Shown: piece by piece, positions 15,503-49,637 of the stretch
Numbering within the stretch: position 1 is the first letter of the stretch
Layout: the number at the start of each line of letters is the position of its first letter
Position numbers and translations under genes: made by a program
Source: a virus
Taxonomy: Duplodnaviria; Caudoviricetes
Length of the DNA stretch: 64,000 bases
Direction: 5' to 3' (one strand)
IMG/VR virus record: IMGVR_UViG_3300021400_000063
Notes under the pieces: generated by a model
Database searches by the model: none
What the model was told of the DNA's origin: nothing
What the model saw: only the letters and a program-made list of their open reading frames with translations

Positions 15503-17617
15503 TTATTTTATTTCAGGATAGTTAGAATTAGAAAATTCAGATGAAATTGCTGAAAGAGATTCACTATCAGCTTTATGAATTTTTGCAATTTCATTATATC
15601 CATCTCCACCAGATCTATTTACGAAATGATAACCAAATGATGGAGCTGCAAATTTTACATTAGCTGTATTTTTCAAAGTTTGATCTGCATTTTCTTTAGT
15701 AAAATCACCAAGAGAATTATAAGTATCAAAATCTACTGAAGAGAATAAACCTATAATATTGGAAACTGCTCTAGTATTAGCAACTGATGAAACCATATTC
15801 GATGGATCTAATTTAGCTTTCCAAGCATTTACAAACATCATTCCAGCACGTTTGAAATGTGATTTACGGAAGTTATGTGTCATATCATCGAGTGATAATC
15901 CGCCAAGTGTTGCTAAATATTCAGAAATACCACAAGATGGGAACATTGATTCCAAAGCCATACGAACTGGTCCACGAGATGCTAATGGTAAACTAATATT
16001 AGGTTCCATATCTTTAATATTTATTTCAACAGACATTGTTTTTGGGAAACCATCTGGACCCCAATCGTTTCCATCTCCACCACGAGTTACTGATAATGAT
16101 TCAACCATTCCATAATTAATCATAATTTTATTCTTAACGAATACTCTTACAGCAAATGGTGATGTATAAGACATTTTACCAATTTGTCTAGGAGCACTCA
16201 TAGTAAGTAATGTTAAAAATGGAATATAAAGATTTTCAAATTTACCCATAGGATCACCATATGGATAATGAAATTTAAATGAGCAAGTAAATGTTCTAGA
16301 GAAAGAACTTGATGAGAATACATCTGGTAATGTAATTCGTCCTTTTCCAGATAATACTGCAGCTTGTTCTGAGAATGAAGAAGCCATTTTCAAACCTAAT
16401 TTCTTAACACCAGCTGTTACAGCACCTAATCCTGTTTCACCACCATTAGGATTAGCTTCATCATTTTGAGAAGCTGTAGCATTCATACTTTCCATTAACG
16501 GGTTAGTTTCAGTAGAGTTTGAAAATGTTTCAGATCCAATTACATCTTTAGAACATCTAAAGGAAATGAATTGATCATTTAAAACATTTACTCCGGATCC
16601 ACCTTCAGCATTCATAATATTTGTAGGTATAACTTTATTAAGATCTAGATCTTTTATAGAACCACAGTATCCATTATCTGTATAAAGTCCCATAATTGTT
16701 GCTAAATCTTTCCAAAGAAATTCTACATATTGCTTGAATAAGTTTCTAGCCTGTCTAAATTCTATAACTTTATTTCCACCAAATATAGCAGAACCTACAG
16801 AACCTACTACGCCTAAAACATCTGTTACACCAGTCCAAAGTTTAGAAAGAACTCCTAATAATCCTTCTCCACCAGTACGAATCAAAGTTTCATTCATACC
16901 TGCCCCGGAACCGAGTCCAAGCATTTTAAAGAATCCTGAATGATATTTAATTCTTCCAGGTTGAAATAAAACTATTGGCCAGTTATTCATAACTTCAGAA
17001 GAATAAATTCTTCCAATTTTAGTATAAACTGGATTAGTTCTAGGATCATCACGTTTATTAAATTGGAATTGTGGATTTAATATAGTTGCTTCACCTAAAC
17101 CAATACCTAAATGTGGAGCTAAACGTTTATATTTTTCAGTACTTGCATAGTCTGAATCTGATACAGCGGAATCGTTTACAGGACTATTATCATAATTTCT
17201 AACAAATGGTCCGCCTTTTAAATAAGTTTTAAAGGTTAAGTTATCTTCCAAATCCGGAGTTATATCCAACTTAGTAGGATCATTATTAATTGATTTTTGT
17301 AATATAGAATCTTTACCAGTTATTTTATCATTAATATAACTAGTCGTATATAAACCTAAAGCTTCTACACAAGAAACAGCATTTAAACCTTCTTCTGAAT
17401 CTTCTATAAATCCCGCAAGTAAATTAGAATCCATATTATATTTATTATAAACAGTTCCATCATTCTTATTCCTTGCAAGTCTAAAAGAATCTGAAATGCT
17501 TGTGATATCTATAGGTTTACCAGTTTCAGTATCTATAATAGCAATATTTTGTAATCCTAAATTATAATTTAAATCTGTAGAATTAGGATTAAAATTTTCT
17601 TGATATGAACTAGCCAT
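15503..17617 (-). CDS. Baseplate hub / tail-tube cap-like protein (T4 gp48-like fold)
   Basis: SFKFHYPYGDP...PRQ...YTSPFAVR...GMVESLSVTRG...DGFP...INIKD pattern. Late promoter 17643-17656. Confidence 0.55.
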   Translation of the reverse strand: MASSYQENFNPNSTDLNYNLGLQNIAIIDTETGKPIDITSISDSFRLARNKNDGTVYNKYNMDSNLLAGFIEDSEEGLNAVSCVEALGLYTTSYINDKITGKDSILQKSINNDPTKLDITPDLEDNLTFKTYLKGGPFVRNYDNSPVNDSAVSDSDYASTEKYKRLAPHLGIGLGEATILNPQFQFNKRDDPRTNPVYTKIGRIYSSEVMNNWPIVLFQPGRIKYHSGFFKMLGLGSGAGMNETLIRTGGEGLLGVLSKLWTGVTDVLGVVGSVGSAIFGGNKVIEFRQARNLFKQYVEFLWKDLATIMGLYTDNGYCGSIKDLDLNKVIPTNIMNAEGGSGVNVLNDQFISFRCSKDVIGSETFSNSTETNPLMESMNATASQNDEANPNGGETGLGAVTAGVKKLGLKMASSFSEQAAVLSGKGRITLPDVFSSSSFSRTFTCSFKFHYPYGDPMGKFENLYIPFLTLLTMSAPRQIGKMSYTSPFAVRVFVKNKIMINYGMVESLSVTRGGDGNDWGPDGFPKTMSVEINIKDMEPNISLPLASRGPVRMALESMFPSCGISEYLATLGGLSLDDMTHNFRKSHFKRAGMMFVNAWKAKLDPSNMVSSVANTRAVSNIIGLFSSVDFDTYNSLGDFTKENADQTLKNTANVKFAAPSFGYHFVNRSGGDGYNEIAKIHKADSESLSAISSEFSNSNYPEIK

Positions 17618-17642
17618 AAATATGACCTCTTATTAATTATAG

Positions 17643-17656
17643 TATATCATTTTGTC
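17643..17656 (-). promoter_or_regulatory. Late-type promoter
   Basis: GACA AAATGA TATA. Confidence 0.65.
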
Positions 17657-17669
17657 ATCTGAACAAAAA

Positions 17670-17858
17670 TTATACGGGGCAGAATTAACTGCCCCGTTTT
17701 ATCAAAAAGACTAAAAGCTTTTTGCCATCGATAAGAGAAAATTCACGAAAACTCTTACCAATGGGTAATTTCAAAAAAATTTATAGGAGGATTTAAATGA
17801 AAAAAAATGACAATTGAAAGACCAAAAGACGTCAGGATGCAGGTTTGTGAATTTGTAT
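17670..17858 (-). ncRNA. Candidate late small RNA (~190 nt) with anti-SD/anti-start-codon segment
   Basis: Perfect late promoter AACA-TATAGA-TATA (17869-17856), no annotated ORF, ends at hairpin 17674-17697. 13-bp stem CCAUUGGUAAGAG/CUCUUAUCGAUGG needs two G-U pairs on the minus strand. Confidence 0.55.
17674..17697. terminator. Intrinsic terminator
   Basis: ACGGGGCAG/CTGCCCCGT. Confidence 0.75.
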
Positions 17859-17869
17859 ATCTATATGTT
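17856..17869 (-). promoter_or_regulatory. Late-type promoter (orphan; drives candidate sRNA)
   Basis: AACA TATAGA TATA. Confidence 0.6.
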
Positions 17870-17883
17870 CAAATAAAAATTTC

Positions 17884-18513
17884 CTATTTTTTCAAAAAAA
17901 CTTTATAACAAGAAATTTTATTTACATCTTTATATTTATGAACTGTACCTTTAGCCGGATCATACATAAGTGTTCCAATTGAATTATATAGTTCAAAATG
18001 ATGTCCACCATAATTACCAGTACTACCTGTTAAGAAATCTACAATAAAGAAATAAACATTTCCATTTCCAGGAAGATCACTAGTATGTTGATAATTTGAT
18101 ACATTCCAATCTGAACCAGAAGCAACAGCTTTAACAAAAACGTTTGCATATTTATGTTTTTTATCATTTAATATTTGTGCCGCATAATTCATAATTTCAT
18201 TTGGACTAATTACTGTACAATCATAGTCAAGCCATCCACTTTTAACCGCATATAAATAAATATCAATTATTTGAGAAGGTCGTAATTTTTTCCCTTTCAC
18301 AAATTGAGGGGCCGCTAAGCAACACATAAAGTTACACCCAAATTTATGGATATTTGTTTCAGGATCTTTAGGTTTACTATCAGTTCTCTTAAAATCGATC
18401 TGATACATTACTTTAACATTAGGTTTAATAAAAGGAACTTTATAAGCAGCAGAATTCTTTTTTATTTCCATAATAATATCTCCATCTTTTATATTAAAAT
18501 GTTTTTCAGTCAT
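17884..18513 (-). CDS. DUF261-like / papain-fold cysteine peptidase (possible cell-wall hydrolase)
   Basis: IHKFGCNFMC (Cys), GHHF (His), YDP (Asp) triad spacing, resembling spirochaete DUF261 proteins. Confidence 0.5.
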   Translation of the reverse strand: MTEKHFNIKDGDIIMEIKKNSAAYKVPFIKPNVKVMYQIDFKRTDSKPKDPETNIHKFGCNFMCCLAAPQFVKGKKLRPSQIIDIYLYAVKSGWLDYDCTVISPNEIMNYAAQILNDKKHKYANVFVKAVASGSDWNVSNYQHTSDLPGNGNVYFFIVDFLTGSTGNYGGHHFELYNSIGTLMYDPAKGTVHKYKDVNKISCYKVFLKK

Positions 18514-18522
18514 AAAATAAAC

Positions 18523-18546
18523 ACCTGGTGAGATTTCTCACCAGGT
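18523..18546 (-). terminator. Terminator after tape measure gene
   Basis: ACCTGGTGAGA/TCTCACCAGGT. Confidence 0.7.
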
Positions 18547-18560
18547 ATTAAAATTATATG

Positions 18561-35536: not shown

Positions 35537-35546
35537 ATCTTACCTC

Positions 35547-35561
35547 CATTATTATAATATA
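35547..35561 (-). promoter_or_regulatory. Early-type promoter
   Basis: TATATTATAATAATG. Confidence 0.65.
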
Positions 35562-42422: not shown

Positions 42423-42451
42423 AAAAGTAGCCCTAAAGGTATAATTTAAGT

Positions 42452-42465
42452 TATATTATAATGTA
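42452..42465 (-). promoter_or_regulatory. Late-type promoter of scaffold-MCP operon
   Basis: TACA TTATAA TATA. Confidence 0.65.
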
Positions 42466-42479
42466 ATAAAGAAAAAAGT

Positions 42480-42645
42480 AAAAGAAAGGTGCTGGTTTTA
42501 CCCAGCACCTATTTATTTAAAGGTTTAAAAATAAATTAAACTCGAGAGATCTAATATCATCGACGATGAATACTAAATCTTAAGGAGAGTTATACGAATT
42601 ACACAATTCTAATTTGAAGATAAAGAATTTGAGCTTAATTTATTT
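42480..42645 (-). ncRNA. Candidate structured RNA (sRNA or helicase 3' UTR element)
   Basis: 15-bp closing stem 42631-42645/42529-42543 and internal stem AGAUUUAGUA/UAUUAGAUCU both pair fully only on the minus strand (G-U). Ends at terminator 42487-42510. Confidence 0.45.
42487..42510 (-). terminator. Intrinsic terminator
   Basis: AGGTGCTGG/CCAGCACCT plus U-rich tract on the minus strand. Confidence 0.75.
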
Positions 42646-42658
42646 ATAACCTGTTAAA

Positions 42659-46003: not shown

Positions 46004-46063
46004 AGGGTGGATGACTATAAACTCTTAATAAAAATAAATTAATTATAGTCAAGGGTAAGTTAT

Positions 46064-47563: not shown

Positions 47564-47577
47564 CATATTCATGTGTC
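47564..47577 (-). promoter_or_regulatory. Late-type promoter
   Basis: GACA CATGAA TATG. Confidence 0.55.
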
Positions 47578-47613
47578 GAAGTTCATGTTATTTTGTAAAA
47601 TGTTTATTTTTTG

Positions 47614-47628
47614 TATATTATAATAATG
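47614..47628 (+). promoter_or_regulatory. Early-type promoter (orphan)
   Basis: TATATTATAATAATG with upstream context like the 45989 copy. No ORF >=60 aa with a credible start downstream. Confidence 0.6.
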
Positions 47629-47637
47629 AATAAAAGA

Positions 47638-47666
47638 TAAGGAGGGCGCCGCAAACGCCCTCCTTA
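47638..47666 (-). terminator. GC-rich hairpin/terminator of candidate sRNA
   Basis: TAAGGAGGGCG/CGCCCTCCTTA. Confidence 0.65.
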
Positions 47667-47697
47667 AATTTAATTTTTATTCAAGGTGGTGAGCACG

Positions 47698-47796
47698 ATG
47701 AATAACGATCTATACACTTATTTTTATAGTGTACACGATTATGACGGTTCTGCGTTAACTTTAAAAACACAGATAACTCGAAGACCAGTTTATTAG
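47698..47796 (+). CDS. Possible 32-aa peptide MNNDLYTYFYSVHDYDGSALTLKTQITRRPVY
   Basis: AAGGTGG RBS-like element 8 nt upstream. Lies between early promoter 47614-47628 and terminator 47869-47898. May only be the antisense image of the sRNA. Confidence 0.3.
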   Translation: MNNDLYTYFYSVHDYDGSALTLKTQITRRPVY

Positions 47797-47833
47797 AGAA
47801 ACCGGAATCGATCCCGTCACAAATAAATGTATA

Positions 47834-47847
47834 TATACATAATTGTT
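47834..47847 (-). promoter_or_regulatory. Late-type promoter (orphan; drives candidate sRNA)
   Basis: AACA ATTATG TATA. Confidence 0.6.
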
Positions 47848-47868
47848 ATACATACATTTATTAAATAT

Positions 47869-47898
47869 AAAAGAAGGGAGAAATATCTCCCTTCTTTT
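47869..47898. terminator. Bidirectional terminator
   Basis: AAAAGAAGGGAGA/TCTCCCTTCTTTT. Confidence 0.8.
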
Positions 47899-47899
47899 T

Positions 47900-49588: not shown

Positions 49589-49612
49589 ACGATATAACAG
49601 TGAATATTTTTA

Positions 49613-49627
49613 TATATTATATCATTG
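49613..49627 (+). promoter_or_regulatory. Early-type promoter
   Basis: TATATTATATCATTG. Confidence 0.55.
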
Positions 49628-49637
49628 GAGGTAATAG

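Follow-up and report, generated by a model that had tools for sequence, protein, structure and literature searches.

Which product is made from a late phage promoter that stands directly behind the stop codon of one gene and has no annotated gene of its own to serve? The question is raised by a gap of 266 nt (17618-17883), which separates two minus-strand late genes in the window, i.e. in the whole stretch of 64,000 nucleotides analysed here. The window has a G+C content of about 30%, and its structural proteins, including a tail sheath (phrog_3242), are of the phiKZ type. It derives from an uncultivated, AR9-like giant phage; phages of the phiKZ/AR9 type are known to take over transcription from the host by means of two RNA polymerases that they encode themselves. 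The gap holds a late promoter of the AR9 type, approximately 194 nt in which neither strand has a conserved ORF, an intrinsic terminator, and another late promoter for the next gene. In the initial annotation it had been read as an orphan late transcript that carries the reverse complement of a ribosome-binding site (RBS) plus start codon. In the order of transcription, the features are:

17884-18513, minus strand: upstream gene, encoding a DUF261-family protein (Pfam PF03196)
17856-17869, minus strand: late promoter AACATATAGATATA, AACA-TATAGA-TA(TA), AR9-type, predicted to be used by the non-virion RNA polymerase (RNAP); the motif class is enriched upstream of genes
17665-17858, minus strand: predicted small RNA of about 190-194 nt, from the start site to the U-tract of the terminator (promoter, terminator, fold)
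17847-17854, minus strand: 5'-proximal segment AAAUUCAC, complementary to the P1 loop (inverted repeat; block identity 0.96)
17797-17817, plus strand: mini-ORF MKKNDN, six codons behind AGGAGG; not conserved and judged not functional
17797-17807, minus strand: U-run plus CAU, the complement of AUG-AAAAAAAA; cross-clade pattern CAU-N(2-9)-CUCC
17782-17795, minus strand: conserved single-stranded block UAAAUCCUCCUAUA with the anti-Shine-Dalgarno (anti-SD) motif CCUCCU at 17785-17790; identity 0.88, predicted unpaired
17725-17764, minus strand: hairpin P1, a 13-bp stem with an invariant 14-nt loop UUUUCGUGAAUUUU (17738-17751); covariation
17703-17724, minus strand: hairpin P2, CAAAAAG / CUUUUUG; 100% of cells paired, one compensatory A-U to U-A change
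17674-17697, minus strand: intrinsic terminator hairpin P3; terminator consensus scan and covariation
17643-17656, minus strand: second late promoter GACAAAATGATATA, GACA-AAATGA-TATA, a RACA-N6-TATA motif 26 nt upstream of the start of the 704-aa protein
15503-17617, minus strand: downstream late gene, encoding a 704-aa virion structural protein (phrog_3181 and phrog_20401)

A predicted late transcription unit and its relatives

In phage AR9, late promoters were mapped by dRNA-seq and primer extension to the form AACA-(6N)-TA/G, the last base being the start site, and early promoters have the form AAATATATATTAT-(6N)-G; internal late promoters were reported as well, seven of which give antisense transcription (PMC5312081). 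The sequence AACATATAGATA at 17858-17869 on the minus strand fits the late form. Applying the AR9 grammar to it therefore yields 17858 as the predicted start site, at which the phage's non-virion RNAP would initiate. The initial annotation had called this promoter perfect, which is correct with respect to the AACA-N6-TA class; the exact 14-mer, however, occurs only once in the window, and a search allowing two mismatches showed no enrichment, so that "perfect" designates the fit to a class and not a repeated sequence. The class itself is well represented: [AG]ACA-N6-TATA matches 22 times in the window, and 16 of these matches fall into intergenic DNA (about 3.8 kb, approximately 6% of the sequence), mostly 20-50 nt before a start codon on the same strand, the sheath and virion protein genes included. 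The early motif TATATTAT-N6-G precedes a separate set of genes in the window. Examples are found at 35537-35560, 49610-49637 and 46030-46063; several of the predicted starts lie only 8-18 nt before the ATG, and several early mRNAs would therefore begin at or next to their own SD. On the plus strand of the gap a search for an early promoter found none in the clade of the window, in agreement with the earlier observation that no plus-strand promoter was visible.

On the transcribed strand, the GC-rich hairpin that the initial annotation had placed at the end of the transcript lies at 17674-17697 (P3; 9-bp stem, seven GC pairs, tail AUAAUUUUUG) and is followed by a U-tract at 17665-17673, as in an intrinsic terminator. 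The second late promoter is kept as RACA-N6-TATA in the relatives, with TACA in L027. As it is located 26 nt before the 704-aa gene, the first promoter is unnecessary for the expression of this gene.

The DUF261 gene probably begins at M15 (ATG at 18471, SD GGAGAT), because the gene calls of its relatives give 194-197 aa. Between the 2750-aa gene and this start, a hairpin of 13 bp that resembles a terminator is found at 18520-18549. Since there is no terminator between the DUF261 stop codon and the promoter at 17858, the small-RNA region is also the 3' UTR of the DUF261 gene; the DUF261 mRNA would continue through it and end at the same terminator (17674-17697). The designation "orphan" is thus appropriate for a late promoter without an annotated gene behind it, but not for the sequence, which the DUF261 message would share.

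Nucleotide searches of the phage collection gave no match among near or distant phages, and an exact-pattern scan of GTDB genomes found nothing; the corresponding scan of viral contigs returned only the two known relatives, and a metagenome scan one usable extra locus. Relatives were retrieved via the protein level, where more than 100 exist, and further clades by means of profile-guided scans and of proteins homologous to the 704-aa protein. For the DUF261 protein, 12 relatives were obtained with identities of 49-84%, and they keep the order large gene, DUF261, gap of approximately 245-290 nt, 704-aa homologue. For the 704-aa protein, the nearest named relatives belong to Staphylococcus jumbo phages (about 25% identity). 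A homologue with 49% identity (P0051) was found in a MAG that bears the label Malacoplasma sp.; this is a possible indication of the hosts infected by the wider group of phages. The loci were assigned to five clades: A, consisting of the window and seven distinct relatives; B (L017, L019); C (L020, L026); D (L027); and E (L045).

In all five clades the late promoter directly follows the DUF261 stop codon. A covariance model of the 3' domain of clade A (R1) scored 126 bits for the window, 125 bits for a 95%-identical relative, and 49-52 bits for clade B (E ~1e-8); due to the latter value, clades A and B are considered one family. For one close relative (G001) the complete genome of 276 kb is available, and an R1 search for paralogues in it found none; two extra matches were rejected, being ordinary terminators at gene ends. 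The loci of clades C, D and E cannot be aligned to clade A, yet they occupy the same syntenic position and possess a late promoter, a terminator and a second late promoter; between promoter and terminator, a folded RNA with unpaired CUCC motifs is predicted. In the clades of L044 (from a biogas fermenter) and L046 the flanking genes abut, with neither a gap nor an RNA unit. The RNA is consequently dispensable in some lineages. In Staphylococcus phage Madawaska, only a terminator was found at the corresponding position.

Fold, strand and coding capacity

The MFE of the minus strand is -44.3 kcal/mol, which corresponds to z = -5.1 in comparison with shuffles, versus z = -2.8 for the plus strand. 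For the alignment of the eight clade-A sequences (A2; window and seven distinct relatives), RNAalifold gave a consensus fold with three hairpins, P1, P2 and P3, in the 3' half. Both partners have changed in 11 of 29 pairs. If the pairing between the 5' end and the P1 loop described below is added, 96% of the cells are paired, versus 42-52% after the partners have been shifted by 1-3 columns. The covariation observed was reached by none of 500 shuffles.

The stem of P1 is formed by 17752-17764 and 17725-17737. These segments are 85% complementary as DNA, i.e. the 13 bp include two G-U pairs on the minus strand, just as had been noticed initially. Four pairs of P1 show compensatory changes, 97% of its cells are paired, and the identity of its loop is 0.98. 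One U.G pair is invariant and the adjacent pair is G.U in four sequences; on the plus strand both would turn into A.C mismatches, which identifies the minus strand as that of the RNA. In P3, compensatory changes were found for six of nine pairs; all of its cells are paired (100%), and the identity of the U-tract tail is 1.00.

A complementarity absent from the initial annotation links the 5' end of the RNA to the loop of P1: AAAUUCAC matches GUGAAUUU in the P1 loop over 8-11 nt, and all eight pairs occur in 8/8 relatives without ever varying. As both strands are invariant, covariation does not test this pairing; judged from complementarity, it is possibly a pseudoknot or an anchor of the 5' end. 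In clades B, D and E, a 5' end of different sequence pairs with a downstream segment of its own, beginning at +1 or nearby, which fits a general need to bury the 5' end.

Clade A is conserved in blocks. The identity is 0.93 for the promoter, 0.96 for +1 to +13, 0.32 for each of the two variable stretches, and 0.93 for the GAUAAAAC linker. Among the single-stranded parts, conservation is highest in the 5' end and the P1 loop (0.96-0.98), which exceed the anti-SD block (0.88). A 12-nt direct repeat AAAGAC[T/C]AAAAG, to which the initial annotation had drawn attention, is present at 17706-17717 and 17817-17828, but looks incidental: it is common only to the window and its closest relatives, L003 and L010, and its copies lie in the loop and 3' strand of P2 and in the variable 5' region, respectively. 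No credible Rfam family was obtained, either with the gathering threshold or with permissive ones (best E-values 0.77-0.88, for unrelated families), and ARAGORN found no tRNA or tmRNA in the region. On the basis of the alignment, the putative structured RNA is a new family absent from Rfam, whose covariation is sufficient for curation.

The coding capacity was compared in the same way. The plus-strand ORF MKKNDN exists as initially described; it is not the conserved feature. In clade A, the ORF behind AGGAGG has six codons in the window, 17, 4, 5, 8, 43 and 33 codons in relatives, and is missing in L021; clade B offers no properly spaced start, clade D a bare ATG-stop, and clade E an ORF of two codons. 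No peptide is shared between the antisense ORFs of the relatives. In the 95%-identical relative, two 1-nt homopolymer indels reframe both plus-strand ORFs. Two longer candidates were rejected: the 33-codon plus-strand ORF at 17807-17908, whose frame is broken in the 95%-identical relative, and the 29-codon minus-strand ORF at 17685-17774, which has no SD and is frameshifted in relatives by indels of 1-2 nt. The claim of a discrete minus-strand late unit that is non-coding on both strands is supported by the comparative analysis as a whole, which establishes promoter class, terminator, scaffold and strand of the predicted RNA as well as its non-coding nature. That a conserved gene for a late non-coding RNA resides at this locus is, from the comparative sequence evidence, very probable.

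The anti-SD motif and its proposed role

The U/C-rich stretch UUUUUUUUCAUUUAAAUCCUCCUAUAAAUUUUUUU, which the initial annotation had recognized as the complement of an SD plus start codon, is indeed present on the minus strand and contains CCUCCU at 17785-17790. In clade A, the UAAAUCCUCCUAU block has an identity of 0.88 and is flanked by the two stretches with 0.32, which marks it as a selected island. The block is predicted to be unpaired with a mean probability of 0.99 for the window and 0.47-0.99 for the relatives. Conservation across clade A is restricted to UAAAUCCUCCUAUA, and the spacing between CAU and CCUCC varies: the distance is 5-6 nt in five of the eight close relatives and 13-14 nt in two, and in one the CAU is absent. 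Lack of conservation of the anti-SD in relatives had been named beforehand as an observation that would speak against the initial reading; the CCUCCU motif is kept in 8/8 close relatives (as CUCCU in L021) and recurs in the four further clades. Conservation and predicted accessibility of the anti-SD motif thus belong to the properties established comparatively.

For all five clades, motifs were counted in one representative RNA each, excluding terminators, and compared with mononucleotide shuffles. The 5-mers CUCCU/CCUCC occurred 15 times versus 1.1 expected, and CAU-N(2-9)-CUCC seven times versus 0.28 expected, with at least one occurrence in every clade; the enrichment across the five clades corresponds to P < 1/2000 in shuffles. 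With dinucleotide-preserving shuffles of four clades, 14 anti-SD 5-mers were seen versus 1.4 expected. The sense-strand pattern GGAG..AUG was not found in any of the five representative RNAs. Clade C has four sites of the CCUCC type, at least two of them in hairpin loops, and clade E has UCCUCC in an internal loop. Since clades C, D and E lack a scaffold that can be aligned to that of clade A, the mirror of SD and start codon is the feature that unites these units, and the initial observation is thereby extended beyond the window. Such a mirror-image signal is equally expected from real translation starts on the opposite strand.

Similar strings exist elsewhere. The 3' UTR of a helicase-like gene (42423-42658) contains the sense-strand string CUCUCCUUAAG, with no start codon on the opposite strand; AACA-N5-TA is found just past the stop codon, and a terminator follows at about 42490-42512. 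The intergenic DNA of the window has no other sense-strand anti-SD string, except at the locus under study and for one copy in a terminator stem. In G001, the segments 193004-193070(+), 94891-95004(-) and 259622-259819(-) are units that extend from a late promoter to a terminator, have no called gene, and contain CCUCC outside the terminator stem.

From the unpaired mirror of an RBS and a start codon it follows that the RNA probably blocks translation starts on other messages. According to this proposal, the non-virion RNAP would start at 17858 from the AACA-N6-TA promoter, and transcription would end at the hairpin/U-tract terminator 17674-17697. The 3' half would fold into the three-hairpin scaffold with the 5' end tied to the P1 loop, and the stretch left single-stranded would present CAU-N6-CCUCCU, the mirror of an SD and start codon. 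This stretch could pair in trans with initiation regions possessing a strong GGAGG, i.e. those of early phage messages and perhaps of the host, and lower the translation of such messages late in infection. Expression, trans pairing and translational effect of the RNA are what we infer from its sequence. We assign a probability of roughly 0.5 to the reading that it is a stand-alone late sRNA masking SD/AUG regions in trans. All sequence features listed in the initial annotation are thus confirmed at their coordinates, whereas its interpretation, a broad pairing with SD-AUG regions that would shut off host or early phage translation, or a mimicry of the 16S 3' end, is supported in part. If the reading holds, a conserved late RNA that mirrors the RBS would be a simple device for sorting early, late and host translation, and one of a small number of conserved regulatory RNAs ascribed to lytic phages.

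Candidate targets were sought in G001 (loci L029-L042), whose operons were classified according to the nearest upstream promoter. GGAGG is present in 26 of 67 translation-initiation regions (TIRs) of early operons (39%) versus 17 of 108 TIRs of late operons (16%; Fisher p = 0.001), and early TIRs are predicted to pair more strongly with the anti-SD block (p = 0.002). With a 16S-like tail, too, the pairing of late TIRs is poorer (p = 8e-5), and subtraction of one energy from the other leaves no significant difference (p = 0.07); as late TIRs are weaker overall and the sRNA-specific difference reaches only this value, the figures do not establish that the RNA discriminates between early and late messages. 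The statistics fit a late anti-TIR RNA that covers strong sites, without singling this model out. The sites of the phage's own genes are mostly of the AAGGAG or GGAGG type, and the AGGAG-type sites of most genes, late ones included, could pair with the RNA as well. Among the predicted targets, the TIR of a 107-aa gene without annotation (G001:208378-208701) ranks first, with 14 contiguous complementary nucleotides AGGAGGAUUUAAAU; the computed duplex energy is -25.9 kcal/mol versus a mean of -13.4, and the chance probability is estimated at ~0.01-0.06, which makes this TIR only a lead. A search for phage mRNAs mirroring the whole 21-nt anti-TIR returned only the locus itself and one site with three mismatches.

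A more far-reaching proposal, which we put forward tentatively, concerns the whole family of late RNAs in jumbo phages. These could be generic decoys for translation-initiation regions, with the anti-SD CCUCC and a CAU at start-codon distance, which titrate strong-GGAGG mRNAs and shift ribosomes from early and host messages to late messages with weaker sites. If true, this would constitute an RNA-based temporal switch of translation in a phage that already runs its own transcription.

The strongest alternative, to which we give clearly less weight than to masking in trans and slightly less than to the decoy proposal, is a structured late RNA (stand-alone and/or DUF261 3' UTR) that acts via its 5' end, its P1 loop or its scaffold, e.g. 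by protein binding, stabilisation of the transcript or pairing with one specific target, the CCUCC motif being secondary. The 5' end (0.96), the P1 loop (0.98) and the GAUAAAAC linker (0.93) all surpass the anti-SD block in conservation, the 5' end and the P1 loop are mutually complementary, and the region is at the same time a 3' UTR that no terminator separates from the DUF261 stop. However, clades C, D and E keep the unpaired CUCC and the CAU..CUCC pattern without having the scaffold sequence of clade A, which points to the motif as the shared functional core.

Alternatively, the functional element might reside on the plus strand, as a strong RBS with a mini-ORF or a start-stop, and the late minus-strand RNA might be its cis-antisense silencer. 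This would account for a well-spaced SD and ATG recurring antisense in all five clades, and clade C indeed has antisense ORFs of 11 and 29 codons with good SDs, and opposite its second late promoter an exact TATATTAT core on the antisense strand. Within the window, a convergent early(+)/late(-) unit of this kind also exists at 47573-47899: a late promoter AACAATTATGTATA (47834-47847, minus strand) without a close downstream gene faces an early-type promoter, a 33-codon plus-strand ORF has the SD AAGGTGGTGA, and two hairpins bound the unit. The same early-sense/late-antisense layout recurs in the close relative at G001:259622-259819. At the locus under study, in contrast, the ORF varies in sequence and in length (1-43 codons) and is missing from L021 and clade B, 1-nt indels shift the frame in the 95%-identical relative, and the clade of the window has no early promoter on the plus strand. 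A plus-strand transcript coming from the side of the 704-aa gene would first meet a hairpin followed by UUUUAUC, and the covarying stems need G.U pairs which are present only on the minus strand. We consider a plus-strand function unlikely.

Marginally less credit is due to a leader or attenuator acting in cis, in which transcripts from 17858 would read through the terminator under some condition and the anti-SD would sequester the RBS of the 704-aa gene or act as an antiterminator, comparable to the PR'-tR' 6S unit of lambda or to anti-SD pairing between a 3' UTR and a 5' UTR. The order of promoter, about 190 nt, terminator and late structural gene resembles that of lambda 6S RNA and StxS, and the GAGG of the downstream site is complementary to CCUC. 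Against this speaks that the downstream gene has a conserved late promoter of its own 26 nt before its start, and that all MFE folds contain the terminator and leave the anti-SD free. Moreover, the downstream SDs differ by clade (GAGG, GGUGG, GGAG, GGUG, AGGAAG) without a matching change of the anti-SD motifs; due to this lack of co-variation, cis-sequestration of the 704-aa gene was rejected.

A coincidence of promoter-like and anti-SD strings in an ordinary intergenic spacer with a terminator, for which one may cite that the window has the 14-mer promoter only once, without enrichment at two mismatches, and that short AT-rich motifs are common, can practically be dismissed in view of the covariation, the conservation islands, the five-clade motif enrichment (P < 1/2000 in shuffles), and protein identities of 49-85%, which argue against relatives being assembly duplicates.

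Comparison with known systems

Lambda 6S RNA and StxS are units consisting of a late promoter, about 190 nt and a terminator upstream of late structural genes; StxS was reported to be a trans-acting sRNA. The lambdoid units exist because Q antitermination reads through the terminator into the late operon. The present unit has the same composition and is likewise followed by a late structural gene. In contrast to the lambdoid cases, a second late promoter, which is conserved, lies between the terminator and this gene and speaks against a dependence on read-through of the lambda 6S type, and no Q-like logic is evident. P22 sar and IS10 RNA-OUT are cis-antisense RNAs covering a ribosome-binding site. 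The RNA predicted here shares with them the exact complementarity to an SD and start codon on the opposite strand; unlike in these systems, the opposite strand has neither a promoter nor a conserved ORF.

With the late units of AR9, the present unit has in common the late and early promoter consensus and hairpin/U-tract terminators at the unit ends; by its promoters, the AR9 promoter grammar now also covers uncultivated phages of gut and rumen. In the AR9 transcriptome paper we found no such ncRNA for AR9, and the word "noncoding" is absent from its text (PMC5312081); for jumbo phages in general, a description of an RNA of this type did not turn up in the literature searched.

Judged by analogy, the mechanistically closest known RNAs appear to be the sRNAs of Gram-positive bacteria that mask SD sites by means of a C/U-rich seed. 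LhrC of Listeria has three redundant CU-rich sites which mask the SD (PMC4132741), and RsaE/RoxS possess two C-rich motifs targeting SD sequences (PMC6158497). As deduced from sequence alone, the phage RNA would be like these a unit of 100-200 nt with its own promoter and terminator and without coding capacity, and would expose one or several unpaired C/U-rich motifs complementary to the SD, redundancy being seen in some members (four sites in clade C). It differs from them in sequence and structure, for which no homology is evident; because no Rfam match was obtained, it is not a member of the LhrC or RsaE/RoxS families. It further differs in being encoded by a phage and in having a late promoter of the non-virion RNAP type. 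Finally, by combining the full anti-SD CCUCCU with CAU, the predicted pairing would address a generic initiation region and not a particular target.
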